Shown here: positions 5,197-59,159 of the stretch, piece after piece | How the letters are laid out: each line of letters opens with the position of its first letter | How positions within the stretch are numbered: position 1 is the first letter of the stretch | DNA from: an uncultured Acidimicrobiia bacterium | GTDB taxonomy: Bacteria; Actinomycetota; Acidimicrobiia; Spongiisociales; UBA4744 | Length of the DNA stretch: 64,000 bases | Assembly: GCA_964383535.1 (NCBI GenBank) | Contig: CAYLHS010000001.1 | Coordinates: 20,026 to 84,025 of the forward strand | Reading direction: 5' to 3' | Position numbers and translations under genes: made by a program | Notes under the pieces: generated by a model | Databases searched by the model: none | What the model was told of the DNA's origin: nothing | What the model saw: the letters and a program-made list of their open reading frames with translations, nothing else

Positions 5197-5433
5197 GAGC
5201 CAATCGTATCCCTCTCGCTGACGGGCTACATGATCCGAGAGTGAACGACAACACCATGAGAACACCTGCTGCCGTGTATTCATCGCCGTTCCTTGTCTTG
5301 ACCGATGATCGAGGTGCCACCGCCAGTGCGACGGCGCGTGCGCTGTTCCGACGGCGTGTTTGGCGACCGAGCCGTGTCTCCCGGGCAAGGGACCCACATG
5401 GGCGGATATCCTCGAAGACGACAAGGAGGCGGA

Positions 5434-6849
5434 ATGGAGCAGACACCGGTGCGTGTCGCCGGCACACGAATCACTACCGATCAGTCCATCGAGGTCCGGA
5501 ATCCCTACTCGCACGAGGTCATCGGGCTCGTTCCAGCATGTGGCGCCGCCACCGTGACAACCGCCTGCGAAGCGGCCGCGATGACACTCGCACGCGACGA
5601 CTTCCCTCAGTATCGGAGAGCGGAAGTCCTCGAGAATGCAGCCCGACTCGTCTCCGAACGAATCGACGAGTTCGGTCGCACAATTGCACTCGAGGCCGGC
5701 AAACCGATTCGCACCGCCCGTGCCGAGGCGGCCCGTTGCGTCGACACGCTCACGTTTTCGGCTGCGGAAGCAAGGAAGCTCACCGGCGAGATGATCCCGA
5801 TGGACGCCTCCCGGTCAGGGTACGGGCGTCTCGCGTTCGCGCTACGGGTACCGATCGGCGTGGTCGCGGCGATCACACCGTTCAATTTCCCCTTGAACCT
5901 GGTCGCCCACAAACTCGCGCCTGCGATCGCCGCCGGCTGTCCCGTCGTCCTCAAGCCTGCATCGTCGACACCGTTCTCGTCGATCATGCTGGTCGAGTTG
6001 CTGATCGAAGCCGGTATGCCGGCCGACTGGATATCGATCGTGACCGGTTCCGGCAAGGAAGTCGGTGAGCCGCTGATCACCAACCCGATTCCGGCGCTGG
6101 TCACATTCACGGGAAGCCCCGCCGTGGGATGGCACATCCCGGCACAGGCCCCACGCAAGAAGATCTCACTCGAACTCGGCTCGAACTCGCCACTGATCGT
6201 CGAACCGGATGCAGATCTGGATCTCGTCGCCTCGAAGGTGCGGGTTGCGGGATTCTCGTACGCAGGTCAGAGCTGCATCTCGACCCAACGGGTCCTCGTG
6301 CACGAGTCCGTCCATGACCGGTTCGTCGAGATGCTCGCCGAAGCGATCGGAACACTCGTTGTCGGTGACCCCCTCGACGAGACGACCGACGTGGGACCAC
6401 TGATCTCGCCCGAAGAGACACAGCGGGTCCTCGGCTGGATCGACGCGGCGGTCGCCGACGGTGCCACCGTCGTGGCCGGCGGCGTACTGGAAGACGGCCT
6501 GCTCATGCCCACGCTCGTGGACAACGTCCCCCTCGATGTCGACCTCTGCGCAAAGGAGGTGTTCGGCCCCGTCGTGGCGATACTTTCCTACTCGACGTTC
6601 GACGAGGCCCTCGAGATCGCCGACATGGGCGACTACGGCCTCCACGCAGGGATCTTCACAACGGACCTGCATAAGGCGCTCAAAGCCGCACGGACGCTCC
6701 ACTTCGGTGGCGTCCTGATCAACGAGGTGCCCACCTATCGAGCCGACCAGCAACCGTACGGAGGTGTCAAGGACTCGGGGAACACTCGAGAAGGACCGGC
6801 CTACGCAGTACACGAGATGACGCAACTCCGCTTCATCCATCTCGGCTAG
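5434..6849 (+). CDS. NAD(P)-dependent aldehyde dehydrogenase (succinate-semialdehyde DH-like)
   Basis: ATG follows an AAGGAGG ribosome-binding site. ALDH hallmarks: ITPFNFP, catalytic Glu in LELGSNSP, catalytic Cys in GQSCIS. Confidence 0.85.
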   Translation: MEQTPVRVAGTRITTDQSIEVRNPYSHEVIGLVPACGAATVTTACEAAAMTLARDDFPQYRRAEVLENAARLVSERIDEFGRTIALEAGKPIRTARAEAARCVDTLTFSAAEARKLTGEMIPMDASRSGYGRLAFALRVPIGVVAAITPFNFPLNLVAHKLAPAIAAGCPVVLKPASSTPFSSIMLVELLIEAGMPADWISIVTGSGKEVGEPLITNPIPALVTFTGSPAVGWHIPAQAPRKKISLELGSNSPLIVEPDADLDLVASKVRVAGFSYAGQSCISTQRVLVHESVHDRFVEMLAEAIGTLVVGDPLDETTDVGPLISPEETQRVLGWIDAAVADGATVVAGGVLEDGLLMPTLVDNVPLDVDLCAKEVFGPVVAILSYSTFDEALEIADMGDYGLHAGIFTTDLHKALKAARTLHFGGVLINEVPTYRADQQPYGGVKDSGNTREGPAYAVHEMTQLRFIHLG

Positions 6850-6860
6850 GAGGCAGCGCG

Positions 6861-8120
6861 ATGAGTACACGACTCTCCCCACTCCTCACCCAGGCGACCG
6901 GGGTGACGGCGGTCAGAGGTGAGGGCGTCTACCTGTACGACGCCGATGGCAGGCGATATCTCGACTTCACTTCAGGGATTGGGGTGACCAATACCGGTCA
7001 TTGCCATCCAGCGGTGGTCGAGGCCGCCCAACGTCAGGCAGGGGAGCTGATCCATGGGCAGTACACAACCGTGCTGCACCCTGCGCTCCTCGAGCTGACG
7101 GAACGTCTGGGGGACGTCCTCCCGGCCGAGCTCGACTCTCTGTTCTTCACGTCGGCGGGAACCGAAGCCGTTGAGGCGGCGACCAGACTCGCCAAGCAGA
7201 CGACGGGACGAACGAATCTCATCGTCTTTCAGGGTTCCTTTCATGGACGGACCACTGCCGCCCTGTCGATGACCACCTCCAAGGCGGCCTACCGGGCAGG
7301 CCTCCAGCCACTCATGGCGGGGGTATTCGTTGCGCCATTCCCCTACGCGTACCGGTACGGCTGGGACGAGGAGACGACCACCGCGTTCACGCTCAGGGAA
7401 CTCGACTACCTGTTTGCCACCCAGTCGGCGCCGCGAGAGACAGCAGCCATATTCGTCGAGCCCGTCCTCGGCGAAGGGGGCTATGTGCCGGCGACGCCGG
7501 GCTTCCTGGAAGGTCTTCGGGAGCGCTGTGACCGTCACGGCATCCTGCTCGTGATCGACGAGGTCCAGAGCGGCTTTGGCCGCACCGGACGCTTCTGGGG
7601 TCACGAGCACTACGACGTCCGCCCCGACGTGCTGGTTACGGCCAAGGGACTGGCTTCCGGATTCCCGCTGTCCGCGATCGCCGCATCCACAGAGCTGATG
7701 GAGCGTGCGTGGGCCGGCTCGCAGGGCGGCACGTACGGAGGAAACGCCGTCGCCTGTGCGGCGGCTGTCGCGACCCTCGACGTCATCCAGAAGGAGGGAC
7801 TGGTCGAGAACGCCGACACTCTCGGAGCGCACCTCATGACGGCGCTCGGCGGGCTCCAGCAACGCTACCCGGTGATCGGTGACGTGCGAGGCAAGGGGCT
7901 GATGGTGGCCACGGAGTTCTCGACCGGCGGCGAACCCGACTCGAGCCGCGCGAAGCAGGTACAGAAGGCCGTGGAACAGCGGGGCCTTCTGATGCTGACA
8001 TGTGGGCCGCTCGGCAATGTGATCCGGTGGATTCCACCTCTCATTGTGACGAGCGAGCAGATCGACCATGCATTGGGGCTCTTCGAGGAGGCCCTCGCCG
8101 AGACCGCAAAGGAGACCTGA
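6861..8120 (+). CDS. class III (omega) aminotransferase, 4-aminobutyrate aminotransferase-like
   Basis: DEVQSGFGRTG motif and PLP lysine in TAKGLASG; lies immediately downstream of the ALDH. Confidence 0.85.
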   Translation: MSTRLSPLLTQATGVTAVRGEGVYLYDADGRRYLDFTSGIGVTNTGHCHPAVVEAAQRQAGELIHGQYTTVLHPALLELTERLGDVLPAELDSLFFTSAGTEAVEAATRLAKQTTGRTNLIVFQGSFHGRTTAALSMTTSKAAYRAGLQPLMAGVFVAPFPYAYRYGWDEETTTAFTLRELDYLFATQSAPRETAAIFVEPVLGEGGYVPATPGFLEGLRERCDRHGILLVIDEVQSGFGRTGRFWGHEHYDVRPDVLVTAKGLASGFPLSAIAASTELMERAWAGSQGGTYGGNAVACAAAVATLDVIQKEGLVENADTLGAHLMTALGGLQQRYPVIGDVRGKGLMVATEFSTGGEPDSSRAKQVQKAVEQRGLLMLTCGPLGNVIRWIPPLIVTSEQIDHALGLFEEALAETAKET

Positions 8121-9553
8121 TGAACTGGGGTATGTGGATTGATGGCCGCTGGGAGAAGGGTGCCGATGCAGCGACCAGCCGGCTGGAGAACCCGGCGACT
8201 GGAGAAGCCACGGAGGAAGTGGTCGAAGCGGGCCAGGTGGACGTGGACAAGGCGGTAAGCGCGGCGTCGCGCGCATTTTCGAGCTGGAGGCGGCTGAGTC
8301 CCGCGGAGCGATCGGAGATGATCTACCGGCTCGCGCAGCTCCTCGACCAACGCGCCGACGAGTTCGCACGCGTCGAGACCGAAGACACCGGCAAGCCATA
8401 CCCCTCGATGAGTCTCGAAGGTGACGTGGCGTTCTCTGTCGACAACCTGAAGTTCTTCGCCGGTGCCGCCCGAAGCTGGGTGGGCACCGCCGCCGGGGAC
8501 TTCATGGAGGGCTACACCTCGTTGCTGCGACGCGAGCCTGTCGGCGTGGTCGGACAGATCACACCATGGAACTACCCCCTCAACATGGGCGTTTGGAAGA
8601 TCGGTCCCGCGCTCGCGGCAGGCTGCACGATCGTGTTGAAACCGGCGCCGACGACGCCCCGTACCACGCTCATGCTCGCCGAATTGTCCAAGGAGGCAGG
8701 GTTCCCGGATGGTGTGCTCAACGTCGTGACCGGGGGAGCGGCTGCCGGACAGGCGATCGTTGAGCATCCGGGTATTCGGATGGTGTCACTCACAGGGTCG
8801 ACAGCGACCGGCAGAAAGGTGATGGAAACCGCCGCCAAGACGCTCAAGCGAGTCCACCTCGAGCTCGGCGGCAAAGCGCCCTTGGTGGTGTTCGATGATG
8901 CCGACCTGGACGGTCTCGCAGCCGGCGCAACCGAAGGGGCAACCGCCAACTCGGGCCAGGACTGCACAGCGGCGACGCGCGTCTACGTCGAGCGCAGCCA
9001 GTACGACGCCGCAGTCGAGATGATCGTCGAGGCAATGAGCGGCGTGAAAGTGGGCGACCCGTACGACGCTGACGTCGCCATGGGGCCGCTCATTTCACAC
9101 GCGCAGCGTGTACGTGTGGCCGGGTTCGTTCGGCGAGCGGTGGCCGCGGGAGCTCGGGTGGTGCTCGGCGGTGATGTACCCGCCGGTCTCGACCGGGGCT
9201 ACTTCTTCTCTCCCACCGTCATCACCGACGCGGATCAACACTCGGAGATCGTCCAGAGCGAGATCTTCGGACCGGTGCTCGTCGTGCTGCCCTTCGACAC
9301 CGAGGAAGAGGCGATCCGGCTGAGCAACGACGTCACCTATGGGCTCGCCGCGTCCGTGTGGACAAAGGACATCGCGAGAGCGATGCGCGTGTCAGCCGCA
9401 CTCGACTTCGGCACCGTCTGGATCAACGACCATCTCCCGGTCACCTCGGAGTTCCCGCATGGCGGGTTCAAGGAGTCGGGCTTCGGGAAGGACCTCAGCG
9501 AGGAGGCGGTGCTCGACTACACGGTGTCGAAGCACGTGATGATCAAGACGTAG
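8120..9553 (+). CDS. aldehyde dehydrogenase (aminobutyraldehyde/betaine-aldehyde DH-like)
   Basis: Start MNWGMWIDGRW overlaps the upstream stop by 1 nt (TGATG) after an AAGGAG ribosome-binding site; ELGGKAP and GQDCTA motifs. Confidence 0.85.
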   Translation: MNWGMWIDGRWEKGADAATSRLENPATGEATEEVVEAGQVDVDKAVSAASRAFSSWRRLSPAERSEMIYRLAQLLDQRADEFARVETEDTGKPYPSMSLEGDVAFSVDNLKFFAGAARSWVGTAAGDFMEGYTSLLRREPVGVVGQITPWNYPLNMGVWKIGPALAAGCTIVLKPAPTTPRTTLMLAELSKEAGFPDGVLNVVTGGAAAGQAIVEHPGIRMVSLTGSTATGRKVMETAAKTLKRVHLELGGKAPLVVFDDADLDGLAAGATEGATANSGQDCTAATRVYVERSQYDAAVEMIVEAMSGVKVGDPYDADVAMGPLISHAQRVRVAGFVRRAVAAGARVVLGGDVPAGLDRGYFFSPTVITDADQHSEIVQSEIFGPVLVVLPFDTEEEAIRLSNDVTYGLAASVWTKDIARAMRVSAALDFGTVWINDHLPVTSEFPHGGFKESGFGKDLSEEAVLDYTVSKHVMIKT

Positions 9554-9643
9554 GGTCCGTTCCACGGCTACATCGGCTGCGTCGGTGGGAACAGCCCCCT
9601 CCGGCGTCGGCCTTCAGCCTCGCGAGGGGAGGAAATGGCCGCC

Positions 9644-11131
9644 CTACGTGTTCTGGGGAAACCCCAGATCGACGCCACGATTGATCGGGTCACTCCACCG
9701 GGTGATCACGACCTTCGGACGCGTGTAGAAGTGAATGCCCTCCGGGCCGTAGATCGCATGGTCCCCGAACAAGGATTCCTTCCAACCACCGAACGAGTAG
9801 AAGCTCAGCGGCACCGGAATCGGCACGTTCACACCGACCATGCCGACCTGGATCTCCGTCTGGAAGGTGCGGGCAGCACCACCATCGTTGGTGAACACGG
9901 CGGTGCCGTTGCCCCACGGGTTGTCGTTCACGAGACGGATCGCATCTTCGAACGTCTCGGTACGTACGACCGACAGCACGGGACCGAAGATCTCGTCTTG
10001 GTAGATCGTCATGTCGGGGCTCACGTGATCAAAGAGGGTGGGCCCGACGAAAAAGCCTTCCTCGTGGTCGGCAACGTGGATCCCGCGGCCGTCGGCGAGC
10101 AAGGTCGCACCTTCCTCGACGCCCGTGTCGATGTAGCCGACCACCCGGTCCCGGTGCTGGGGTGTGACCAGCGGCCCCATATCCGACTCGGGATCGAGAC
10201 CCGGACCTACCTTCAGGCCCGCAATGCGCGCCTGAATCCTCGGCAGCACCTCGTCCGCTGCATCCCCGACCAGTACGAGAACCGAGATCGCCATGCAGCG
10301 CTCACCGGCCGATCCGAACCCGGCTGAGACGGCGGCGTCGGCAGCGAGGTCCATATCGGCGTCGGGCAAGACGACCATGTGGTTCTTGGCGCCCGCCAGC
10401 GCCTGCACACGCTTGCCTGAGGCCGTGGCGGTCTGATGAACGTAGCGCGCTATCGGGGTAGAACCGACGAAGCTGACTGCTCTGACATCGGGGTGTGTGA
10501 GCAAGCGGTCCACCGCGATCTTGTCGCCATGGACCACATTGAACACTCCCGGCGGCAACCCTGCCTCGGTGAAGAACTCGGCGAGCATGAGCGAGACCGA
10601 CGGATCCTTCTCCGACGGTTTGAGGACGAATGTGTTGCCCGTGGCGACGGCCACCGGGTACATCCACATGGGGACCATCGCCGGGAAATTGAACGGGGTG
10701 ATGCCTGCGACGACGCCGAGTGGTTGGCGGACAGTCAACGTGTCGACGTTGCGGGATACGTTTTCCGAGAAGTCGCCCTTGAGGAGGTGGGGAACACCGC
10801 ACGCGAACTCAACGACCTCCAGGCCCCGAGCCACCTCACCCTGTGCATCGGCGAACGTCTTGCCATGCTGTCGGGAGACCGTCCGTGCGAGATCGTCCGC
10901 GTGGCGGGAGAGGAGCTCCCGATACGCGAACAAGATGCGTGTTCTCGTCGTGAGCGAAGAATCGTGCCACTCGTCGAATGCCTCCAACGAGTTTGCGACA
11001 GCATCGTCGACATCTCCGACGGTCGCGAAACCGACCTGGTCGACCACCTGTCCGGTGGATGGGTCATAGATGCTCCCGGCGGACACGGGGTGTCTCTCGT
11101 GCGGTTTGCCACCGATCCAATGTGTGATCAC
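9644..11131 (-). CDS. mmsA: CoA-acylating methylmalonate/malonate-semialdehyde dehydrogenase
   Basis: GTG start preceded by a GGAGGA ribosome-binding site; N-term MITHWIGGK and active site GERCMA are typical of MMSDH-type ALDHs. Confidence 0.75.
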   Translation of the reverse strand: MITHWIGGKPHERHPVSAGSIYDPSTGQVVDQVGFATVGDVDDAVANSLEAFDEWHDSSLTTRTRILFAYRELLSRHADDLARTVSRQHGKTFADAQGEVARGLEVVEFACGVPHLLKGDFSENVSRNVDTLTVRQPLGVVAGITPFNFPAMVPMWMYPVAVATGNTFVLKPSEKDPSVSLMLAEFFTEAGLPPGVFNVVHGDKIAVDRLLTHPDVRAVSFVGSTPIARYVHQTATASGKRVQALAGAKNHMVVLPDADMDLAADAAVSAGFGSAGERCMAISVLVLVGDAADEVLPRIQARIAGLKVGPGLDPESDMGPLVTPQHRDRVVGYIDTGVEEGATLLADGRGIHVADHEEGFFVGPTLFDHVSPDMTIYQDEIFGPVLSVVRTETFEDAIRLVNDNPWGNGTAVFTNDGGAARTFQTEIQVGMVGVNVPIPVPLSFYSFGGWKESLFGDHAIYGPEGIHFYTRPKVVITRWSDPINRGVDLGFPQNT

Positions 11132-11159
11132 CGTGTTCCTCCGTTTCGCTCCAGACTAT

Positions 11160-12428
11160 TCACCGACCGAACCGGTCGAGTAGACGGAACCCCCAGGCCG
11201 CGAGCGGCAAGAACCACGGACGACTCCGGTAGTACCACCGTGTCGGATGGGGTATCTCGGCGAACGGACTCGACGCCAGGTCACCGGTCATCATCGCCGC
11301 GACGTCGATGCCGAGGTAGGTGCCGAGCGCCACGCCGTGGCCGCCGTAGCCCATTGCGTACCAGATGCCGTCATTCCTCCCGATGTGAGGAAGCAGATCG
11401 AAGGTGGCGGCGAGCTTCCCGCCCCAGCTGTGCGTGATCCCGTAGGGCTCGAGCCGGGGGAAGATCTCGAGCAGTCTGCGATGGAGATCCCGTCCGCTGT
11501 CATGGAGGTCGAGATCCGGCCTGAGGTTGCGCCGTCCCCCGATGAGGATCCGATCGTCCGGTGTACGGCGGATGTAGTTGAGGAACCGGCGGGCCGTCCA
11601 CAGCATGTGACCCCCAGGGATCAGCTCCTTCGCGAGATGTCCCGGAAGTGGCTCGGTGACGATCGAGTAGCTGCCGATCGGGACCACGCCACGGCGGATG
11701 TTCGGGAACAGCGACCCGGTGTAGCCGTTGGTCGCCACCAGCACCCGCCCCGCTTCGAGAGAGTCTCGACTGGTGACGATTCGATAGCCGGAGCCGGCTT
11801 TGTGAACGCCGGTCACCTCCGCGTGCTCCGTGATGGTTGCTCCTGCGCGTATCGCGGCGCGGGCCAGCCCGAACGTGTAGCGGGCGGGGTGCAGACCTCC
11901 GCTCACCGCGTCGGTGAGGGCAATCGAGAACAGGTCACTGCTCACCACCTTCCGGACGTCCGTGCCGGTCGATACCTCCATCGGGAAGCCGAGATGCTCG
12001 GTGCTCCATCGAGCGTCAGCGGACAGGTGCTCGATATCACGTCGGGTGAATCCGAGCTCGGCTGCACCGTACCTCGCGAAGGCACAATCGATGTCTTCGG
12101 ATCGGACGACGTCCTCGACTCTCTGGATGGCATCGATCGAAGCCTGCCAGAGCCTGAGACCCAGGTCGCCGTACTGGCGGAGAAGCGGCTCGACCGGGGG
12201 CTTGACCCCGTGGATGGTCATGCCGGCATTCATCCCGCTCGCTCCATCGCCAACGGTCTGAGCGTCGAGAACGGCGGTCGTGAGCCCGGCACGAGCCAGG
12301 ACCCTTGCAGCATTGAGACCCGTTATCCCGGCACCGATCACGGCAACGTCGACCGTGGCCGGAGGGTCGGTCGTCGGGAGGGTTTCGGAGTAGTCGTCGG
12401 TCCAGAAAGGAACGGTGCGAACGTCCAT
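11160..12428 (-). CDS. FAD-dependent oxidoreductase (DadA/PuuB-like amine or amino-acid oxidase)
   Basis: Start reset to MDVRTVPFW...; Rossmann FAD motif VAVIGAGITGLNAARVLA; lies upstream of and co-directional with mmsA. Confidence 0.65.
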   Translation of the reverse strand: MDVRTVPFWTDDYSETLPTTDPPATVDVAVIGAGITGLNAARVLARAGLTTAVLDAQTVGDGASGMNAGMTIHGVKPPVEPLLRQYGDLGLRLWQASIDAIQRVEDVVRSEDIDCAFARYGAAELGFTRRDIEHLSADARWSTEHLGFPMEVSTGTDVRKVVSSDLFSIALTDAVSGGLHPARYTFGLARAAIRAGATITEHAEVTGVHKAGSGYRIVTSRDSLEAGRVLVATNGYTGSLFPNIRRGVVPIGSYSIVTEPLPGHLAKELIPGGHMLWTARRFLNYIRRTPDDRILIGGRRNLRPDLDLHDSGRDLHRRLLEIFPRLEPYGITHSWGGKLAATFDLLPHIGRNDGIWYAMGYGGHGVALGTYLGIDVAAMMTGDLASSPFAEIPHPTRWYYRSRPWFLPLAAWGFRLLDRFGR

Positions 12429-12508
12429 GGCCGGAACGCTACTCAATTTCCTCGCACCGCACCGACCAGGCCGTCGGTCGCTGACTAACGTGCAATTGGG
12501 AGGACCGA

Positions 12509-14125: not shown

Positions 14126-14141
14126 AGCGGCGGGGGCCAAG

Positions 14142-16090: not shown

Positions 16091-16941
16091 ACTCCGGGAC
16101 CAGACCGAAGGGTCTCGTCGATCGACTCCTTGCCGCCAACTCCTGGATCGTCTACGCGTTCTTCTACGCCCCGATCTTCGTGCTGGTCTTCTTCTCCTTC
16201 AACGACAACCGCAACGTGGGCGTGTGGACGCATGCCAGCTTCCGTTGGTATGGGGAACTCGCCCAGAGCCAGGACATCATCCGATCCCTCAAGAACTCGC
16301 TGATCGTGGCCGCCGTATCCACCATCGTGTCGACCGTGATCGGCACCGCCGCAGCACTCTCGATGGAACGGTTCCGTTACCGGGGTCAGCGTACGTACGA
16401 CGCCCTGCTGTACCTGCCGATCATCATCCCCGATGTGACGATGGCAGTGATGATGCTGCTCTTCTTCGTCCAGGCGTTCGGGATCCTGAACGGCGCGTTC
16501 GGAACACGGATCGAACTCGGGCTGGGATCCATCTCTCTTGCCCACATTGCATTCAATATCTCGTTCGTCGCGGTGGTGGTGCGCGCGCGTCTGGCCCAAA
16601 TGGACTCGAGTCTGGAAGAGGCGGCACGCGACCTGTACGCGAGCCGCTGGCAGACCTTCAGGAAGGTGACCCTTCCGTTGATCATGCCGGGGGTGGCAGG
16701 CGGCGCACTCCTGGCACTCACCATGTCGCTCGACGACGTGGTGGTCACCAGCTTCGTGACGGGTCCAGGGTCGACGACACTGCCCGTATACGTGTTCGGC
16801 CTGGTGAAGAGGGGTGTGACGCCGCTGGTCAATGCCGTATCGACGCTCATGCTGGTAGCGTCGATGTTGTTGGTCGCAGGCTCGCTCTTTTTCCAGAGGA
16901 GTAGATCGACCAGTCATGGAGGAGGGACTGTTGAAACCTAG
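16087..16941 (+). CDS. potC: spermidine/putrescine ABC transporter permease
   Basis: GTGA overlap with the potB stop; EEAARDLYASRWQTFRKVTLP is a near-repeat of the corresponding PotB loop. Confidence 0.75.
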   Translation: MNSGTRPKGLVDRLLAANSWIVYAFFYAPIFVLVFFSFNDNRNVGVWTHASFRWYGELAQSQDIIRSLKNSLIVAAVSTIVSTVIGTAAALSMERFRYRGQRTYDALLYLPIIIPDVTMAVMMLLFFVQAFGILNGAFGTRIELGLGSISLAHIAFNISFVAVVVRARLAQMDSSLEEAARDLYASRWQTFRKVTLPLIMPGVAGGALLALTMSLDDVVVTSFVTGPGSTTLPVYVFGLVKRGVTPLVNAVSTLMLVASMLLVAGSLFFQRSRSTSHGGGTVET

Positions 16942-18061
16942 AACCACAATCATGACCGCCCTGCTGGTGGTGCTGCTCATGGTGATGATGTCGGCATGCA
17001 GCAGTACGGCCGAAACCACAACTACGGAGGCGGCACAGACGACGACCACCGCCGCAGAAGCGATGGGATGTTCGCCTGATCAAGTGGACGGAGACTTGAA
17101 CTTCTACAACTGGTCGGACTACATCGACCCGGACCTGATCTCCGCATTCCAAGATCAGTACGGCGTCACGGTCACCCAGGACTTCTATGAGTCGAACGAG
17201 GAGATGCTTGCCAAGATCCAAGCCGGTGTGCACTACGACTTGATCGTCCCATCCGACTACATGGTCGGGATCATGGTCGACGACGGCGATCTGATGAAGC
17301 TCGACAAGGCTGCGCTGACGAACCTGGGCAACCTGGATCCCGAGTTCACCGCCATGCCGTTCGATCCGACGGGCGACTATTCGGTGCCGTACCAGTGGGG
17401 TACGACAGGGCTCGGCGTCGATCTGGCGGTCGTCGGCGAGGATCACCCCTACTCGTGGGGGATCATCTTCGACCCTGCGATGAATCAGGGCCATCAGGTG
17501 TCCATGCTCAACGATGCCCGCGAAACGATGGGGGCGGCCCTCAAGTACCTGGGCTACTCCTTGAACAGCACGAGCCTCGACGAGCTTCAGCAGGCGGCCG
17601 ACCTCATCAAGTCGGCTAAGGACGTCATCGTCACGTTCGATTCGGACAACTACGACGAGAACCTGGTCAACGGTGAGGTGTCGATTTCGCACGGGTACAA
17701 CGGGAACTTCTTCACCGCGTTCGACGCCGCCGACAATCCGGACCAGTTCGAGTACTTCATGCCCGAGGAGGGCGGCACGATCTGGGTGGACAACATGGCG
17801 ATCCCCGCCAATGTCGACCATCCGTGCACGGCGCTCACGTTCATCAACTTCCTACTGGACGCCCAGAACGGAGCACAACTGACGAACTACAACTACTACG
17901 CGAGCCCGAACGCGGCGGCCAAGCAGTACATCAATCCCGAGATCCTCTCGGACACTGCTGTGTACCCGGACGAGGCGACGATGAAGCGCCTCGAGTTCAT
18001 CGAGGACACGGGCGACTTCGAGATCAACTACACGGACTACTTCAATCAGGCAAAGAGCTGA
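16916..18061 (+). CDS. potD: spermidine/putrescine ABC transporter substrate-binding lipoprotein
   Basis: Signal peptide with lipobox MMSAC; PotD/PotF-like periplasmic binding fold. The true start may be a TTG a few codons downstream of the GGAGGAGG ribosome-binding site. Confidence 0.7.
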   Translation: MEEGLLKPRTTIMTALLVVLLMVMMSACSSTAETTTTEAAQTTTTAAEAMGCSPDQVDGDLNFYNWSDYIDPDLISAFQDQYGVTVTQDFYESNEEMLAKIQAGVHYDLIVPSDYMVGIMVDDGDLMKLDKAALTNLGNLDPEFTAMPFDPTGDYSVPYQWGTTGLGVDLAVVGEDHPYSWGIIFDPAMNQGHQVSMLNDARETMGAALKYLGYSLNSTSLDELQQAADLIKSAKDVIVTFDSDNYDENLVNGEVSISHGYNGNFFTAFDAADNPDQFEYFMPEEGGTIWVDNMAIPANVDHPCTALTFINFLLDAQNGAQLTNYNYYASPNAAAKQYINPEILSDTAVYPDEATMKRLEFIEDTGDFEINYTDYFNQAKS

Positions 18062-18065
18062 TCGA

Positions 18066-18096
18066 GTGAAGGGGGTGGCTCCGCCACCCCCTTCAC
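18066..18096. terminator. GC-rich perfect hairpin between convergent potD and an ALDH gene (candidate bidirectional terminator)
   Basis: GTGAAGGGGGTGG-ctccg-CCACCCCCTTCAC: a 13-bp perfect stem with a 5-nt loop in the 31-nt gap between convergent genes; no U-tract. Confidence 0.45.
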
Positions 18097-19532
18097 CGCA
18101 CGTTGTCGAGGTCCAGCACCACGGTCTGAAGGTCGGTGAACTCCTCGATTCGACCTCGGCCCCAGCCGGTCTCGGTTCCAGCGGCACCGCCGAAGGGTTG
18201 GAACGTCTCCCAGAAGTCCGTCGAGTCGTTCACCACGACCGTCCCGGAGCGAACTCTGTCCGCATACCAGAACGCCTTCGACAGGCTCGAAGTGAACACG
18301 GCCGCCTGGAGACCGAGATTCGATCGATTGGCGATGGCCACGGCCTCTTCGTCGTCGCGAACGGTGATGATCGGCAGCACCGGCCCGAACGACTCCTCGG
18401 AGAACAGGGAGCTTTCCGGAGAGACGCCGTCGACGACGGTGAAGTGGTAGTAGAGATCTGTGGGGAAGCCTTCCGCCCGCCCGCCGCCGACGAGGACATC
18501 GGCGCCGCGGGCCATCGCGTCTGCGATCTGCCGATCCATCTTCGCCGCCGTCGGCTCGTTGTTGAGGGGCCCCATCGTGGTAGCCGAATCGAACGGATCT
18601 CCAAGACGCACGGCATCCGCTGCCTTGAGGGCCAGTGCGACGAATTCCTCGTGGACATCGTCGAGCACGATCACGCGTTCGGTCGCGCAGCACACCTGCC
18701 CGGCGTTGTAGTACGCCCCGTAGACGGCGAGCGACGCCGCAGCATCCAGGTTGGCGTCGCCGGTCACGATCGTAGGGCCGTTGCCCGACATCTCCATGAT
18801 CGAACGCTTGATGCCCATCGAAGAGATGATCTTCTTGCCGGTTGCCGTCGAACCGGTGAAACCCACGGCGTCGACTCCGCCGGAGGAGACGAGCTGCGCT
18901 CCGATCGACGGTCCACCGGGGATGATCGACACGGCCCCTTTCGGAACACCCGCCTCGTCGAAGGCCTCCGCCAACTTGAGGAGGGACCAGGATGTGAACT
19001 CCGGTGGTTTCACGATGAGTGCGTTACCGGTTGCGAGTCCGGGGCCGACATACTCGAGGGGGATCGTGACAGGGAAGTTCCATGGCGTGATCACGGCCCA
19101 GACACCGATCGGGCGTCTGAATGTGAACATGCGCTTGCTTCGTGACGACGTCGGGATGACCTCACCACCGAGACGCTTGGCGTCCTCGGCCGCATTCAAG
19201 AAGTACTGGTTGGCTTCCTGAATGTCCTCGAGGGACTCGGCGTGGAACGGCTTGCCCTGCTCCAGAGTCTGGATCCGGGCGATCTCGTCCACCATCGGCT
19301 CGATCGCTGCTGCGATGCGCGTGCACAGATCGGCTCGCTCGAACGCCGACCAATGGCGCATCTCGTCGGTCGCCTCACGCGCTGCCCGCACCGCCACGTC
19401 GAGATCGGCACGCGATGCGAGCGGTACGTTCGCGATGTGTTCGCCCGTCACGGGACTGTACAACTCATGCACCTGCTCGCCGGTTCCCTCGGTCCACTCG
19501 CCGGCGAGGTAGAGCTTCAAATCCTGCGCCAT
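18093..19532 (-). CDS. aldehyde dehydrogenase
   Basis: Start reset to MAQDLKLYLAGEW, with a GGAGG ribosome-binding site 7 nt upstream; ALDH motifs ELGGKDP-like and GQVCCA. Confidence 0.85.
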   Translation of the reverse strand: MAQDLKLYLAGEWTEGTGEQVHELYSPVTGEHIANVPLASRADLDVAVRAAREATDEMRHWSAFERADLCTRIAAAIEPMVDEIARIQTLEQGKPFHAESLEDIQEANQYFLNAAEDAKRLGGEVIPTSSRSKRMFTFRRPIGVWAVITPWNFPVTIPLEYVGPGLATGNALIVKPPEFTSWSLLKLAEAFDEAGVPKGAVSIIPGGPSIGAQLVSSGGVDAVGFTGSTATGKKIISSMGIKRSIMEMSGNGPTIVTGDANLDAAASLAVYGAYYNAGQVCCATERVIVLDDVHEEFVALALKAADAVRLGDPFDSATTMGPLNNEPTAAKMDRQIADAMARGADVLVGGGRAEGFPTDLYYHFTVVDGVSPESSLFSEESFGPVLPIITVRDDEEAVAIANRSNLGLQAAVFTSSLSKAFWYADRVRSGTVVVNDSTDFWETFQPFGGAAGTETGWGRGRIEEFTDLQTVVLDLDNVR

Positions 19533-19597
19533 GACGCTGCCTCCTTCGTGCAAACCATGCTAGGGACGGTCGCCGTGCCGGGTTCGCGCCGGGTAGC

Positions 19598-21082
19598 ATG
19601 GCGGGTGGTGAGAATGTGGCGGACCGCCTCCAACTGATAGACGGATCATTCGAAGCCGGAGCCGCTTCTCCATTGCCTGTCGTCGATCCGGCGACAGGCA
19701 GAACGATCGACCAGGTTTCGACCGCCTCTCGCGACCAGGTCGACCGCGCGGTCACATCCGCGAGGCGGGCACAGGCGCTCTGGTGGAGCGCCACCCAGCA
19801 GGAACGAAGCGACGCGATGCACGCCGTCGCCGCCGAGATCAGAAGACGAACCGACGACATCGCCGACATCGTCACGAGGGAGACCGGACGCCCCTACTCG
19901 AGGAATCTCCTCTATGTGGACATGATCGCCAATCTCTTCAGACAGTACGGAGAGCTTGCGCGTGTCCACGGCGGACGGGTGGCCCCCTCCAACGACCCGG
20001 GGCAGCTCTCACTCGTCCTTCGGGTTCCCTACGGCGTCGTCGCAACCCTCGTTCCCTGGAACTACCCGCTGTTGCTGCTCGCATTCAAGGTCGCACCGGC
20101 CCTCGCAACCGGCAACACGGTCGTCATCAAGCCGGCGTCGGAGACGGTCCTGACGACGCTCGTTCTCGCCGAGGTGTTCCAAGCGACGACTCCTCCAGGT
20201 GTCGTCAATGTCGTCGCCGGCAGAGGGTCGACGGTCGGGGAGCAACTCGTGTCGCATCCTGGAACCGACATGGTGGCCTTCACCGGTTCCACCGAGGTGG
20301 GCGTCCGCATCGGAGAAGTGTGCGCCCGCATGACCAAGCCCGCTCACCTCGAACTCGGCGGGAAGGACCCGGCCATCGTGTTTGGAGACACGGACCCGGA
20401 GCTGGCCGCCAGAGCCGTCGTGTGGGCGGCGTTCCTGAACGCAGGTCAAGTGTGCACGTCCACCGAGCGTGTCTACGTCCACGACAGCCTCTACGACAGC
20501 TTCCTGGAGGCCGTCGTCGAGACCACCGCGGGGCTACGCGTGGGTGATCCGTTCGATTCGATGACCCAGATAGGTCCGATGCGCAACGAGTCCGCACGAA
20601 TGAAAGTGCTCGAGCAGCTGAAGGACGCGGAACAGGCCGGAGCGAAGATCGTGGTGGGAGGAGACGTCCCCAAGGGGTCGACCGGCTTCTACCTGCGCCC
20701 GACGGTCGTCGTCGACGTCACCCACGACATGTCGCTCATGCAGGAGGAGACGTTCGGACCCGTGCTTCCCATCATGCGCTTCAGAGAACCCGACGAAGCG
20801 TTCGCCCTTGCCGCCGACACACCGTACGGGCTCGGGGCGAGTATTTACACTCAGGATGCCGGTCTCGTGGGACGCGCCTACGAGCAACTCCAGGTCGGAA
20901 CGGTCTGGGTGAACGATCCAGTCGTCGACAATCTCGCCGCCCCGTTCGGAGGTATGCGAGCCTCAGGGAACGCCAGGGAGCTGGGCTTGGAGGGTATGGA
21001 GGCGTTTACCGCTGCCCGGCATGTTCACTGGAACCTCGATCTGCAAGCCAAGCCCTGGTGGTACGGAAAGGACAACTCATGA
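19598..21082 (+). CDS. aldehyde dehydrogenase
   Basis: LELGGKDP and GQVCTS motifs; divergent from the previous ALDH. Confidence 0.85.
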   Translation: MAGGENVADRLQLIDGSFEAGAASPLPVVDPATGRTIDQVSTASRDQVDRAVTSARRAQALWWSATQQERSDAMHAVAAEIRRRTDDIADIVTRETGRPYSRNLLYVDMIANLFRQYGELARVHGGRVAPSNDPGQLSLVLRVPYGVVATLVPWNYPLLLLAFKVAPALATGNTVVIKPASETVLTTLVLAEVFQATTPPGVVNVVAGRGSTVGEQLVSHPGTDMVAFTGSTEVGVRIGEVCARMTKPAHLELGGKDPAIVFGDTDPELAARAVVWAAFLNAGQVCTSTERVYVHDSLYDSFLEAVVETTAGLRVGDPFDSMTQIGPMRNESARMKVLEQLKDAEQAGAKIVVGGDVPKGSTGFYLRPTVVVDVTHDMSLMQEETFGPVLPIMRFREPDEAFALAADTPYGLGASIYTQDAGLVGRAYEQLQVGTVWVNDPVVDNLAAPFGGMRASGNARELGLEGMEAFTAARHVHWNLDLQAKPWWYGKDNS

Positions 21083-22386
21083 GTCTGCAAGGTGAGAAGA
21101 CCGCCGCCTGGTTCGCACGGGCACGTGCGAATCTCGTGAACGGTGTGTCGAGCGGCTTTCGCTACTGGGGTGAGGACGACTCGCTCGTCATCGACCATGG
21201 TGAGGGAGCCTACGTCGTCGACATGGACGGCCGGCGCTATGTCGACTACCAATGTGGATTCGGCCCGATCGTTCTGGGCCACGGGTATCCAGCTGTTGCC
21301 GCTGCCGTCGCCGACGCAGCAGCGTCCGGGACGACGTTCGCAATGACCTCGCGTCGGGAGGTCGAGGCGGCCGAGAAGTTCCGTGCCGCGGTGCCGTGGG
21401 TGGAGGCCCTCAGATTCACGAACACGGGAACGGAAGCAACGATGCACGCGGTTCGACTGGCCAGAGGTTTCACTGGTCGTGACCTCATCTTGAAGTTCGA
21501 GGGTCAGTACCACGGCGTCCACGACTATGTGATGTTCTCGACGGCGAGTGCACCGCCTTCGGCACTTGGATCCCGATACCGTCCGATTCCGGTCCAGAGT
21601 TCGTCCGGCATCCCGGACGCGATTCGCTCGACGATCAGGACGCTTCCGTTCAACGATCTGGAGGCGGTACAGAGGTTGTTCCGGGACATCGGTCACAGGA
21701 TCGCGGCGATCATCGTCGAGCCGATGCTCGGCAATGCATTCGGCATCATGCCCCAAGAGGGCTACCTGCAAGGGTTGAGAGACGTTTGCGACGAATACGG
21801 CTCGGTCCTGATCTTCGATGAAGTGAAAACCGGTTTCAGGGTGGCACTGGGAGGAGCCCAGGAACTCTTCGGAGTCACGCCCGACCTCGGGACGTATGCA
21901 AAAGCGATGGGCAACGGGTTCCCTGTCGCCGCGATCGCCGGTCGCGGAGAGGTGATCTGGGGATGGGCGAAGGGTGGTATTGCTCAGGCGGGCACGTACT
22001 CGGGCAACGGTGTTGCCGCTGCGGCCGCCGCGGCGACCATCGACGTTCTGTCGACGGGTGAACCATACGAACGGATGCACAAGTCCGGCACCGCACTCAT
22101 GCAAGGCCTGAAGACAATCTGTGCCGACAAGGGCGTACCGGCCCACATCGTCGGAGTGCCTGCCATGTTCTCGGTCTTCTTCGGGGATGAGTCCCCGAAG
22201 GACTTCAGGGATGCATCCAATCACGACGAGGACCTCTACGCGACGGTCGTGCGCGGCATGATCCAGCGGGGAGTGATGCCCGTCGACGACGCGAAGGAAC
22301 CATGGTTCCTGTGCGCCGCGCACGGAGACGAGGAAGTAGCCGTATCGCTGACCGCCTTCGAAGAGGCGCTCGGCGAGGCGATCTAA
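21079..22386 (+). CDS. class III aminotransferase (GSA-aminomutase-like fold)
   Basis: ATGA overlap with the upstream ALDH stop; DEVKTGFRV and PLP lysine in YAKAMGNGFP. Confidence 0.8.
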   Translation: MSLQGEKTAAWFARARANLVNGVSSGFRYWGEDDSLVIDHGEGAYVVDMDGRRYVDYQCGFGPIVLGHGYPAVAAAVADAAASGTTFAMTSRREVEAAEKFRAAVPWVEALRFTNTGTEATMHAVRLARGFTGRDLILKFEGQYHGVHDYVMFSTASAPPSALGSRYRPIPVQSSSGIPDAIRSTIRTLPFNDLEAVQRLFRDIGHRIAAIIVEPMLGNAFGIMPQEGYLQGLRDVCDEYGSVLIFDEVKTGFRVALGGAQELFGVTPDLGTYAKAMGNGFPVAAIAGRGEVIWGWAKGGIAQAGTYSGNGVAAAAAAATIDVLSTGEPYERMHKSGTALMQGLKTICADKGVPAHIVGVPAMFSVFFGDESPKDFRDASNHDEDLYATVVRGMIQRGVMPVDDAKEPWFLCAAHGDEEVAVSLTAFEEALGEAI

Positions 22387-22395
22387 GGAGACATC

Positions 22396-23550
22396 ATGCA
22401 CATTGCGCTTCTCGGCGCAGGCATCATCGGCCGTGTCGTCGCCGGCGATCTGGCGACCTGGAACACCCCCGATGAGGTGACCATCGGCGATCTGGACGGT
22501 GAACGGGCGTCTCTCGTTGCCAAGGAACTCGGGTTCGACCATATGCCCGTCGACGTCGCGGACGAACCGTCACTCGACGCCTTCCTCGAGGGAACGGACG
22601 TCGTCATCAACGCCGCCCAATACGGAGTCAACCTCGCGGTGATGGAGGGAGCCCTCCGTGCGGGCGCCCACTATCTCGACCTTGGCGGGCTCTTCCACAC
22701 GACCCGCAAGCAGTTGCTGCTGGACAACCGGTTTCGCGAAGCCGGCCTGACGGCGGTGCTCGGTATCGGATCGTGCCCAGGGATAGCGAACGTGCACGCC
22801 GGTGACCTGGCGACGCGGATGGACACCGTCCGGTCGGTGAAGATCTACAACGGCGCGACCGTCGATCCGTCGGACACGCTCAAATGGCCGTACTCGCTGT
22901 GGACGATTTTCGACGAGATAACCGAGCGGCCGATGGTGTTCCGAGAAGGCGCGTTCGTCGACGTGGAACCCCTGTCCGAAGAGGAGATGTTCCCGTTCAG
23001 GGAACCGATCGGAAATGCCAAGACTCACCTGTCGCTGCACTCGGAGGTGGCCACCATCCCGGTGAGCCTCGCCGGCAAGGGCATCGAGGCATGCGAGTTC
23101 AAGATCCGGTTCTTCGGTTTCAGTGAAGGAGCTCTCCGCAAACTGCAGTTCCTCGCCTCACTCGGGCTCGCATCGAAAGAACCACGCCCGGACGGGACGG
23201 TCCCTCGCAAGCTGCTCGTCGACCTGCTCGAAGAACTGCGACCTGAGCCTCCCAAACACCCCGGATTCAAGGACATCGCGACGGTCGCCGAGGGCACCCG
23301 AGACGGAGCACCGATCACGCTGCGCATCGACTCGACGGCATGGCCGTCGAAGGAACTGGGTGTGGCCGGAGGAACGATGGTGGTGGCGTCACCGGCGGCC
23401 ATCGTCGGAAGATGGCTCGCGAGTGGCGAACTCTCACACCCAGGCGTCCATCCACCGGAGACGTCGATACCACCGCAGCCGTTCTACGAAGCGCTCGCAG
23501 TGCGGGGAGTGGCGACGACACTCCAGGAGACGACGACACTGGCCGGCTAG
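22396..23550 (+). CDS. saccharopine-dehydrogenase-like NAD(P)-binding oxidoreductase
   Basis: N-terminal Rossmann MHIALLGAGIIGRVVAGDL followed by a domain typical of saccharopine/carboxynorspermidine dehydrogenase-family proteins. Confidence 0.6.
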   Translation: MHIALLGAGIIGRVVAGDLATWNTPDEVTIGDLDGERASLVAKELGFDHMPVDVADEPSLDAFLEGTDVVINAAQYGVNLAVMEGALRAGAHYLDLGGLFHTTRKQLLLDNRFREAGLTAVLGIGSCPGIANVHAGDLATRMDTVRSVKIYNGATVDPSDTLKWPYSLWTIFDEITERPMVFREGAFVDVEPLSEEEMFPFREPIGNAKTHLSLHSEVATIPVSLAGKGIEACEFKIRFFGFSEGALRKLQFLASLGLASKEPRPDGTVPRKLLVDLLEELRPEPPKHPGFKDIATVAEGTRDGAPITLRIDSTAWPSKELGVAGGTMVVASPAAIVGRWLASGELSHPGVHPPETSIPPQPFYEALAVRGVATTLQETTTLAG

Positions 23551-25330: not shown

Positions 25331-25351
25331 GGGCTTCTCCGGAAGGTGTTG

Positions 25352-25364
25352 TTAGCCATGCTAA
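25352..25364. promoter_or_regulatory. inverted repeat TTAGC-cat-GCTAA just upstream of the marR start (candidate MarR operator)
   Basis: 5-bp arms with a 3-nt spacer, 22 bp upstream of the marR start codon in the marR/korA divergent region. Confidence 0.3.
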
Positions 25365-25422
25365 TGAACCCGGGGGAGAGGGCGAATTGAACCTGCTCTT
25401 TCCGGCACTACGCTTCCAGGTG

Positions 25423-37756: not shown

Positions 37757-37763
37757 GGTTCCC

Positions 37764-40853: not shown

Positions 40854-40871
40854 CCGGCGTACCCTGAGTCG

Positions 40872-56980: not shown

Positions 56981-59159
<2,179 letters not shown>

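Follow-up and report, generated by a model that had tools for sequence, protein, structure and literature searches.

Introduction

In marine and sediment systems, a significant pool of the dissolved organic nitrogen consists of polyamines. Five bacterial routes for their catabolism have been described, namely gamma-glutamylation, the aminotransferase pathway, direct oxidation, the SpdH route and acetylation; bacteria are known to break the secondary amine of spermidine with O2-using flavin oxidases, with the haem/FAD enzyme SpdH, or by ATP-costly gamma-glutamylation (PMC9397018). A different group of enzymes, CASDH (carboxyspermidine dehydrogenase), CANSDH and CAPADH, makes polyamines by reductively condensing a diamine with aspartate semialdehyde at the expense of NADPH (PMC10413350, PMC10599626). 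CASDH is specific for NADPH (PMC10413350), and the characterized members of this dehydrogenase family, homospermidine synthase excepted, act on carboxylate-bearing amines (PMC10599626, PMC10413350). Here we describe a locus at positions 5434-23550 of a 64,000-nucleotide stretch of DNA from an uncultured marine-sediment bacterium of the Acidimicrobiia (contig CAYLHS010000001.1; the whole stretch is called the window below), in which a dehydrogenase with the CASDH fold stands beside a PotABCD-type importer and a set of aldehyde-oxidizing enzymes.

The locus is filled by 15 intact genes (Pfam and NCBIfam assignments, with refined start codons). Because the window has a GC content of 64%, genes were called from third-position GC, and the calls were afterwards compared with profile libraries. 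A first-pass annotation had listed five aldehyde dehydrogenase (ALDH) genes, one of them MmsA-type, two class-III aminotransferases, an amidohydrolase, a saccharopine-dehydrogenase-like enzyme and a full potABCD importer, all of which are present and intact. We think it probable, though well short of certain, that this is a chromosomal locus by which spermidine-type polyamines are taken up and catabolized for carbon and nitrogen, with the amine cleaved by uncharacterized core enzymes. It would thus be a genuine, conserved polyamine-utilization locus, ordinary in its downstream half, whose core could plausibly represent a new form of polyamine catabolism. We found no published description of such a module in the literature searched, which covered polyamine catabolism in connection with saccharopine dehydrogenase, isoputreanine or Acidimicrobiia.

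Results

The Core Dehydrogenase Combines a CASDH Fold with an NAD-Type Cofactor Motif

The right-hand end of the locus holds the genes on which our argument turns.

18093-19532, minus strand: ALDH4, an aldehyde dehydrogenase (PF00171, 466 bits; passes no NCBIfam cut-off)
19598-21082, plus strand: ALDH5, aminoaldehyde/betaine-aldehyde-dehydrogenase-like (best NCBIfam model NF010000, 453 bits, below the cut-off of 615)
21079-22386, plus strand: AT2, a GSAM-like omega-transaminase of 435 amino acids (GntE model, 509.4 bits, just under the cut-off of 525)
22396-23550, plus strand: a saccharopine-dehydrogenase-family enzyme of 384 amino acids, NAD-type with a CASDH fold (Sacchrp_dh_NADP PF03435 and Sacchrp_dh_C PF16653); called the dehydrogenase below

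The dehydrogenase has no NCBIfam match. Its AlphaFold2 model (pLDDT 93) was compared with solved structures by Foldseek and proved closest to carboxyspermidine dehydrogenases (TM-score 0.85; 8deb, 8h4z; 20-23% identity), followed by the L-lysine dehydrogenase 3abi and then by saccharopine reductases. The residues His228, Glu230 and Glu188 of the B. fragilis enzyme BfCASDH correspond to H215, E217 and E174 of the dehydrogenase and are invariant in 72 orthologues; Glu229 of BfCASDH corresponds to S216, and this Ser is equally invariant. At the end of strand beta-2 of the Rossmann fold, the dehydrogenase has 'GD', as in 3abi, instead of the NADP-type 'SR', and the Asp is again found in all 72 orthologues. 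An acidic residue at the end of beta-2 favours NAD+ in Rossmann folds, implying that the dehydrogenase would favour NAD+, which fits an oxidative role. Its gene being linked to importers and aldehyde oxidizers, it is probably an oxidative, catabolic enzyme, and it is a candidate for the cleavage of a C-N bond.

Because the nearest folds belong to the biosynthetic enzymes CASDH and CAPADH, and because the catalytic His and Glu are retained, AT2 and the dehydrogenase might also be read as a biosynthetic pair, in which an amino-aldehyde is made and then reductively condensed with an amine to a polyamine (homospermidine or a spermidine analogue), as by CASDH, CAPADH and homospermidine synthase. 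We regard this as very improbable. The Rossmann motif is NAD-type, whereas those of the biosynthetic enzymes are NADPH-type; neither the cluster nor the related loci that we examined contain a carboxy(nor)spermidine decarboxylase partner; and the pair is steadily linked to importers, to irreversible aldehyde oxidizers and to GabT-like, GabD-like and MmsA enzymes.

The second-best fold suggests another pathway, the degradation of lysine or pipecolate via saccharopine or allysine, which would employ a saccharopine or lysine-6-dehydrogenase, a pipecolate-oxidase-like flavoenzyme, a piperideine-6-carboxylate dehydrogenase and an aminoadipate transaminase. The L-lysine dehydrogenase 3abi shares the 'GD' motif, some sources name homologues of the dehydrogenase 'lysine 6-dehydrogenase', and there are weak NCBIfam matches to AmaA (183.8 against a cut-off of 600), 2-aminoadipate transaminase (339 against 650) and pip_6_carb_DH (234 against 730). 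These scores are far under their cut-offs, however, and CASDH folds are closer than those of lysine dehydrogenase or saccharopine reductase. The transporter, moreover, is PotD-type with an intact polyamine site, and ALDH2 passes an aminobutyraldehyde dehydrogenase model, so that lysine or pipecolate degradation seems to us highly unlikely. Catabolism of 2-aminoethylphosphonate was rejected, as matches to PhnAcAld_DH, Phn_aa_oxid and PhnT2 are far under cut-off. To our knowledge, ectoine or diaminobutyrate degradation does not fit either: the locus is without a DoeA/DoeB-type gene, and its transporter is of the wrong type.

The partner of the dehydrogenase, AT2, passes only the broad subfamily model NF000818 (421.4 against 398), and its PDB matches are GSAMs first, then aldehyde and amine transaminases. 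GntE, whose model it narrowly misses, acts on a cationic aldehyde or amine. An assignment as HemL was rejected, because AT2 fails the hemL equivalog TIGR00713 (402.6 against 527.3) and because its synteny with the dehydrogenase speaks against it. The best PDB matches of ALDH5 are plant BADH/AMADH and E. coli YdcW/PatD, and it is 40% identical to ALDH2. ALDH4 matches SSADH, BADH and ALDH2 structures equally well; its orthologues (68-93% identity) are placed divergently in the same way in 14 related loci, and it is the ALDH most steadily linked to the core in Acidimicrobiia.

The Transaminase and Dehydrogenase Are Conserved with the Importer in Two Phyla

One genome per species was scanned with an alignment of the dehydrogenase, and all window proteins were then searched against the resulting 80 loci; those with a dehydrogenase orthologue of at least 63% identity are referred to as Acidimicrobiia-type. 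In 17 of 19 such loci the gene next upstream of the dehydrogenase is AT2, and a PotABCD-like transporter is encoded within 10 kb in 9 of 13. A unit of potABCD, a GSAM-like omega-transaminase, an aldehyde oxidizer and the dehydrogenase recurs in Acidimicrobiia and in some Chloroflexota. Minimal clusters (L017, L020) consist of potABCD, AT2 and the dehydrogenase, with or without a PuuB-like gene; two others (L008, L024) are without AT2 and carry instead a pyruvate-type omega-transaminase (NF005102, 697 against a cut-off of 574). The first-pass annotation had cast AT2 and the saccharopine-dehydrogenase-like enzyme as accessories, but they are the transporter's evolutionarily most conserved partners. 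The entire 15-gene layout is repeated in a sister species (L089/L090) at 87-93% protein identity; this, together with the presence of subsets of it across a class and in a second phylum, implies that the clustering is not due to chance.

In Anaerolineae, the genes are arranged in single-strand operons (L041, L062, L076) that run from potCD through an ALDH5-like gene, an AT1-like gene (57-62% identity), an ALDH1-like or OCD/mu-crystallin gene, a paralog of the dehydrogenase, AT2 and, optionally, an ALDH to the dehydrogenase itself. Five Chloroflexota (Anaerolineae-type) loci from metagenome-assembled genomes (MAGs) have a tungsten-type aldehyde:ferredoxin oxidoreductase (AOR; AFOR_N and AFOR_C) between the AT2-type transaminase and the dehydrogenase, in the slot that is filled by an ALDH in L041 and L076.

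L053, 6400-8445: AOR
L047, 8065-9957: AOR
L034, 6537-8465: AOR
L084, 7405-9291: AOR
L068, 7827-9719: AOR

That an ALDH can be swapped for a non-orthologous AOR implies that aldehyde oxidation is part of the module and that its direction is catabolic. It also suggests that the AOR-bearing loci are an anaerobic version of the module. MmsA-type ALDHs adjoin the dehydrogenase or its paralog in three loci (L049, L051, L084) besides the cluster in the window.

In Chloroflexota loci, the paralog itself, with 25-30% identity to the dehydrogenase, is encoded upstream of the transaminase (L049:1483-2592, with equivalents in L034, L041, L048, L051, L053, L062, L076 and L084). It retains the catalytic His and Glu and has Asp, not Ser, after the His, as in CASDH and CANSDH; given this acidic residue, the dehydrogenase and the paralog probably act on different amines. 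The ornithine-cyclodeaminase (OCD)/mu-crystallin family gene mentioned above is found between the GabT-like gene and the paralog at L041:4698-5714 and L076:4891-5973. It is of the imine reductase/cyclodeaminase type and hints at cyclic-imine intermediates such as 1-pyrroline.

The Importer Keeps the Ligand Site of PotD

The transporter is encoded by four overlapping genes.

14142-15209, plus strand: potA, with ABC_tran and TOBE_2 domains (TIGR01187, 384.7 bits, passing the cut-off of 355.6; scores higher as PotA than as PotG)
15206-16090, plus strand: potB, permease, with an ATGA overlap with potA (top NCBIfam model PotB, 259.9 bits, below the cut-off of 348; higher than PotH)
16087-16941, plus strand: potC, permease (top NCBIfam model PotC, 231.2 bits, below the cut-off of 326; higher than PotI)
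16916-18061, plus strand: potD, lipoprotein predicted to bind polyamines (E 6e-66 to E. coli PotD structures, 37% identity)

The potC gene has a GTG start with a AGAAGGAGG site and overlaps the stop codon of potB. The gene order, which the first-pass annotation had singled out, is simply the canonical one of E. coli potABCD. That annotation had also made its polyamine reading depend on the class of the binding protein, and here the reading stands: the best NCBIfam model is PotD, ahead of PotF, even though the score of 239 against an equivalog cut-off of 582 makes the protein a relative of PotD and not an orthologue by NCBI's rule. It has a signal peptide with a Cys lipobox and a Thr/Ala-rich linker.

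We compared the binding protein with the 13 spermidine-contacting residues of E. coli PotD, which we take to be those given by Sugiyama et al. 1996. Twelve of the 13 are kept, identically or conservatively, the sole loss being Q327 to I. The three acidic residues that hold the three nitrogens of spermidine in PotD, Glu36, Glu171 and Asp257 (PMC4096761), are all present, the first of them as Asp. Among 21 cluster-linked binding proteins from two phyla, nearly all have W34, S/T35, D/E36, Y37, S83, Y85, D168, E171, W/Y229, W255, D257 and Y293, the exceptions being Q at position 36 in L020/L027 and a deviation at positions 35-37 in L041. Gln327 is replaced by Ile in 19 of the 21, by Phe in L025 and by Ala in L062, and Trp229 is replaced by Tyr in about half, including the protein in the window. 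By family and by conservation of its ligand site, the importer is therefore of the PotABCD type, and we infer that its actual substrate is a spermidine-type polyamine.

The Downstream Enzymes Fit Known Steps of Putrescine and Malonate Semialdehyde Metabolism

The left-hand part of the locus contains four enzymes that could complete the pathway.

5434-6849, plus strand: ALDH1, SSADH-like, 471 amino acids (PF00171, E 2.5e-146)
6861-8120, plus strand: AT1, GABA-transaminase-like class-III aminotransferase, 419 amino acids (PF00202, 418 bits)
8120-9553, plus strand: ALDH2, aminobutyraldehyde dehydrogenase of PatD/KauB type (NF010000, 678.9 bits, passing the cut-off of 615)
9644-11131, minus strand: ALDH3, CoA-acylating (methyl)malonate-semialdehyde dehydrogenase MmsA (TIGR01722, 734.5 bits against a cut-off of 448.5, end-to-end match)

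By family assignment, ALDH2 is PatD-type and ALDH3 is MmsA. ALDH2 shares 46% identity with E. coli PatD across 478 amino acids and has the ELGGK and GQDC motifs, but it is under the stricter equivalog TIGR03374 (512.8 against 909.3). AT1 can be called GabT-like, and ALDH1 GabD-like, at the family level only. The 12 top PDB matches of AT1 are all 4-aminobutyrate aminotransferases, and it is 39% identical to PuuE and 37% to GabT, with relatives of 57-62% identity in Chloroflexota clusters; it fails the GABA aminotransferase equivalog TIGR00700 (397.4 against a cut-off of 506.65) and is also under cut-off for the remaining models of this activity. ALDH1, which starts with ATG at 5434 behind an AAGGAGG site, is under every NCBIfam equivalog cut-off and 36% identical to E. 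coli GabD; its catalytic Cys and Glu are present, and its closest solved relatives are 5kf0/5jry and moss ALDH21, which are SSADH-like.

The five ALDHs of the locus are 28-40% identical to one another, implying that they are old, distinct subfamilies and not recent duplicates. All have the catalytic Cys, and four keep the general-base Glu, the motif for which is missing from the MmsA-type ALDH3. Loss of this Glu is expected in CoA-acylating ALDHs.

These assignments bear on the routes that the first-pass annotation had drawn. None of the assigned enzymes is placed in an unrelated pathway, since ALDH2 passes an aminobutyraldehyde dehydrogenase model, ALDH3 is MmsA, AT1 matches GABA aminotransferases and ALDH1 is SSADH-like. 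A route from putrescine through GABA to succinate is supported by ALDH2, AT1 and ALDH1, but AT2 is no obvious putrescine transaminase. Similarly, the route from 3-aminopropanal through beta-alanine and malonate semialdehyde to acetyl-CoA has a clear MmsA in ALDH3 and no obvious beta-alanine transaminase in AT2.

Could known routes account for every gene? The flavoenzyme of the locus would then split spermidine or putrescine, the transaminases would take putrescine or GABA and beta-alanine, and the saccharopine-dehydrogenase-like enzyme and the amidohydrolase would be incidental. The PotABCD-like transporter agrees with this, as do ALDH2, MmsA, AT1 and ALDH1, which suit the roles of PatD, MmsA, GabT and GabD. 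We nevertheless consider it quite unlikely. The flavoenzyme is a PuuB-like PF01266 protein and neither a PF01593 polyamine oxidase nor SpdH, and AT2 is GSAM-like, not a beta-alanine-pyruvate transaminase. The AT2-dehydrogenase pair, supposedly in part incidental, is the most conserved partner of the transporter (the 17/19 and 9/13 loci above), and the ALDH1-AT1-ALDH2-MmsA block is missing from a more distant Acidimicrobiia cluster, L003.

A PuuB-like Flavoenzyme and a YtcJ-like Amidohydrolase Suggest a Possible Side Branch

Two further enzymes are encoded back to back between the MmsA and pot genes.

11160-12428, minus strand: PuuB-like DAO-family FAD amine oxidoreductase, 422 amino acids (PF01266, 197 bits)
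12509-14125, plus strand: YtcJ-like Amidohydro_3 metal-dependent amidohydrolase, 538 amino acids (PF07969, 365.6 bits)

The flavoenzyme had been labelled 'FAD amine-oxidase-like', a label that needs correction: it belongs to the DAO family PF01266 and not to the PF01593 flavin amine oxidases. It is 30% identical to the E. coli gamma-glutamylputrescine oxidase PuuB over 408 amino acids (E 7e-45), which is homology and not proof of a shared substrate, and has only weak matches to AmaA and to glycine or sarcosine oxidases. Its gene flanks potA or sits within the cluster in L008, L016, L020, L024, L026 and L027. In one Acidimicrobiia relative, an 886-amino-acid fusion of DAO and GCV_T domains, folate-linked and dimethylglycine/sarcosine-dehydrogenase-like, lies between potD and ALDH4 (L025:3898-6558, minus strand).

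The best solved relatives of the amidohydrolase, 3icj and 3igh, are uncharacterized. Orthologues of 67-87% identity hold the same position in Acidimicrobiia clusters. Homologues of 62% identity or less are found in unrelated contexts, beside selenocysteine genes; for this reason the amidohydrolase is no reliable synteny marker, and the dehydrogenase was used as the anchor. Near the left end of the window, at 121-963 on the plus strand, there is another match to Amidohydro_3, of 34 bits and to the C-terminal part of the profile.

PuuA is absent: tblastn with the E. coli protein against the whole window gave no match at E<=1e-3. The only match to PuuD in the window is the amidotransferase domain of CTP synthase (57998-58591). 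Among the proteins of 4030-29728 there is no PF01593 amine oxidase at E<=1e-5 and no SpdH-type enzyme, the only flavoenzyme being the PF01266 protein. No described route is therefore complete here except the tail of the aminotransferase pathway. The gene set had been held sufficient for spermidine and putrescine catabolism; the family assignments support the downstream part of this claim, but SpdH, PF01593, PuuA and PuuD all being missing, there is no identifiable spermidine-cleaving enzyme of a known kind.

PuuB, the best characterized relative of the flavoenzyme, uses an N-blocked diamine. This raises the alternative that the substrate of the locus is not a free polyamine but a conjugated amine, such as an acetyl-polyamine, a gamma-glutamyl amine or an opine-like N-carboxyalkyl amine. 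The PuuB-like enzyme would oxidize the free end, ALDH4 would form the acid and the YtcJ-like enzyme would remove the block, as PuuB, PuuC and PuuD do, while the dehydrogenase would take the opine-like secondary amine. The flavoenzyme and amidohydrolase genes are indeed divergently paired; L057 and L061 have an amidohydrolase of 34% identity next to the dehydrogenase and alongside an Opp-type (peptide/opine-type) transporter; and the action of characterized dehydrogenase-family members on carboxylate-bearing amines, homospermidine synthase excepted (PMC10599626, PMC10413350), points the same way, as does the conserved GNAT gene upstream at 3102-3857, although its match is marginal (27 bits). 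However, the PotD site that takes a free tri- or diamine is retained in full in the binding protein, with its acidic and its aromatic residues, the minimal clusters L008, L017 and L020 are without the amidohydrolase, and the window has no PuuA-like ligase. A conjugated amine as the main substrate thus seems unlikely to us. Within a locus for free polyamines, the PuuB-like enzyme and the amidohydrolase are probably, by a weak analogy with the Puu pathway, a side branch for N-blocked (acylated) amines.

The Locus Belongs to the Core Chromosome

Five transcription units make up 5434-23550. On the plus strand, ALDH1, AT1 and ALDH2 form the first, with the start of ALDH2 overlapping the stop codon of AT1; the PuuB-like flavoenzyme and MmsA follow on the minus strand. 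The amidohydrolase gene leads the plus-strand unit potA-potB-potC-potD, in which the pot genes have 4-nt overlaps. ALDH4 is its own unit on the minus strand, and in the last unit, on the plus strand, an ATGA overlap joins ALDH5 and AT2 and a 9-nt gap separates AT2 from the dehydrogenase; the genes of this unit are probably coupled in translation. Two divergent intergenic regions may hold promoters, a role suggested by their position.

12429-12508: separates the PuuB-like gene from the amidohydrolase-potABCD unit; putative promoters
19533-19597: separates ALDH4 from the ALDH5-AT2-dehydrogenase unit; putative promoters

A consensus scan found no sigma-70-like consensus at 12429-12508, and promoter and terminator consensus scans gave fewer matches than shuffled controls, being uninformative in a high-GC genome. 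Across the whole window, Rfam models matched no riboswitch and no other RNA family.

The cluster had been described as an 'island'. In the sense of horizontal transfer we reject this, because GC content is flat along the window (0.60-0.65) and the surrounding genes, among them a Pup-proteasome cluster and those for TatC, CTP synthase and ScpAB, are those of a core actinobacterial chromosome. The Pup-proteasome cluster, which marks the window as core chromosome of Actinomycetota, is complete (36062-44096, plus strand: Mpa/ARC ATPase, a Dop-like Pup-ligase family protein, two proteasome subunits, a PafA-like Pup ligase and PafB/PafC WYL regulators). Identical proteins were found on an NCBI MAG contig and in two JGI metagenomes, and the nearest named relatives are Acidimicrobiia MAGs.

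The neighbours of the cluster were also recorded. Upstream of ALDH1, an AmpH/class-C beta-lactamase-like gene (4030-5283, minus strand) lies directly adjacent and a GNAT acetyltransferase gene (3102-3857, plus strand; 27 bits) farther out, both in positions kept in the sister species L089/L090; the GNAT protein could be a polyamine acetylator, to judge from its family. Downstream (23652-25330, minus strand, and 25231-27830, plus strand), a MarR regulator and an MFS exporter of EntS/MFS_3 type adjoin the cluster and are kept in relatives, followed by a two-subunit 2-oxoacid:ferredoxin oxidoreductase. A fused formimidoyltransferase-cyclodeaminase of 599 amino acids (27929-29728, minus strand; FTCD_N, FTCD and FTCD_C) points to folate-linked catabolism of histidine or formiminoglutamate. 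At 59160-60287 on the plus strand, 36 kb away from the cluster, an alanine dehydrogenase/PNT-family gene (375 amino acids) could serve to recycle alanine from pyruvate-dependent transaminases.

Discussion

Proposed Pathway

We propose that PotABCD would import the polyamine, after which a core trio would act on it: AT2 would interconvert a terminal amine and an aldehyde, an aldehyde oxidizer (ALDH or AOR) would form the carboxylate, and the NAD+-type CASDH-fold enzyme would oxidatively cleave the secondary-amine C-N bond, in reverse of the reductive amination catalyzed by its biosynthetic relatives. In the window, the core would consist of the ALDH5-AT2-dehydrogenase unit together with the divergent ALDH4. 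The trio would yield a diamine and a three- or four-carbon acid or aldehyde. In the order that we prefer, AT2, then ALDH or AOR, then dehydrogenase, spermidine would be converted to N-(4-aminobutyl)-3-aminopropanal, next to an N-carboxyethyl amine (putreanine-type), and finally to putrescine and malonate semialdehyde. This order is preferred because it matches the gene order, because nearly all characterized family members use carboxylate-bearing secondary amines, and because direct release of malonate semialdehyde would explain the co-occurrence of MmsA. Nearly as likely is the alternative in which the dehydrogenase would cut spermidine first and AT2 and the ALDHs would then process the resulting diamine and amino-aldehyde.

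Whichever comes first, the downstream steps would be conventional. The PatD-type ALDH2 would oxidize 4-aminobutanal to GABA, which AT1 would convert to succinate semialdehyde and ALDH1 to succinate, and MmsA would turn malonate semialdehyde into acetyl-CoA. The PuuB-like enzyme and the YtcJ-like amidohydrolase might, more speculatively, act like PuuB/PuuC/PuuD without PuuA.

Several observations weigh against this reading of the locus. The dehydrogenase is just 20-23% identical to any characterized relative, and the substrate-binding Glu229 is replaced by Ser. Within the flanks of about 10 kb that were examined, 39 of 54 Chloroflexota homologues of the dehydrogenase are without AT2, and most are without pot genes; two that were inspected closely sit in unrelated contexts. 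The dehydrogenase family may therefore have another or a broader role. One lineage (L057) pairs the module with an Opp-type transporter, not with PotABCD. Rfam and consensus scans found no regulator and no polyamine-responsive element, and PotB, PotC, PotD, AT1, ALDH1, ALDH4 and ALDH5 are all under NCBIfam equivalog cut-offs. Finally, all enzyme substrates given here are inferred.

With these points in mind, we offer a broader claim as a tentative one that we ourselves hold somewhat doubtful: the trio may perform a previously undescribed, O2-independent cleavage of a spermidine-type secondary amine by running CASDH chemistry backwards, and so constitute a sixth bacterial pathway of polyamine catabolism, in sediment Acidimicrobiia and Chloroflexota. 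If true, it would account for polyamine use by abundant uncultured Acidimicrobiia and anaerobic Chloroflexota, would say what a dehydrogenase subfamily of some 230 sequence clusters does (at E<=1e-30, 232 representatives of clusters formed at 50% identity, out of 1.84 billion), and would mean that a biosynthetic fold has been recruited for the reverse, catabolic direction. If not, the locus remains a well-supported but ordinary cluster for polyamine and GABA utilization.

Comparison with Known Systems

The importer shares with E. coli PotABCD the four-gene order of a TOBE-bearing ATPase, two permeases and a binding protein, and its subunits score best on the PotA, PotB, PotC and PotD models. 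It differs in that PotB, PotC and PotD are below equivalog cut-offs, in that Gln327 is Ile and Trp229 is Tyr, in that its binding protein is a lipoprotein with a Thr/Ala-rich linker, and in being embedded among catabolic genes.

The downstream half resembles the aminotransferase pathway (PatA/SpuC-PatD/KauB-GabT-GabD; PMC9397018) with MmsA added, having a PatD-type ALDH2, a GabT/PuuE-like AT1, a GabD-like ALDH1 and an MmsA in ALDH3. Unlike that pathway, the locus is without a PatA or SpuC orthologue, its only other transaminase being GSAM-like; AT1 and ALDH1 miss the equivalog cut-offs, and two extra ALDHs are left over without an assigned role. The gamma-glutamylation routes (PuuA-PuuB-PuuC-PuuD; PauA-D; GlnA2/GlnA3 in Streptomyces) find an echo in the full-length PuuB homologue, with an ALDH and an amide-hydrolysing enzyme nearby, but the window has no PuuA/glutamine-synthetase-like ligase, and its hydrolase is an Amidohydro_3 metalloenzyme and not a class-I amidotransferase.

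SpdH and the flavin polyamine oxidases (SPDP and DOP routes, PMC9397018) carry out the same step that we assign to the core, cleavage of the secondary amine to a diamine and an amino-aldehyde, and are likewise followed by a KauB-type ALDH. The candidate replacement in the window, by contrast, would be nicotinamide-dependent and would need neither O2 nor a haem/FAD acceptor. The closest parallel to the dehydrogenase is offered by CASDH, CANSDH and CAPADH, with which it shares the three-domain fold (TM-score 0.85), the general-base His, the relay Glu and Glu188, and which act on polyamine-type amine and aldehyde partners. Where these enzymes have the NADPH-type 'SR' motif, however, the dehydrogenase has the NAD-type 'GD'; where they have Glu229 (Asp in the Agrobacterium and Vibrio enzymes), it has an invariant Ser; and its gene, unlike theirs, is linked to importers and aldehyde oxidizers.

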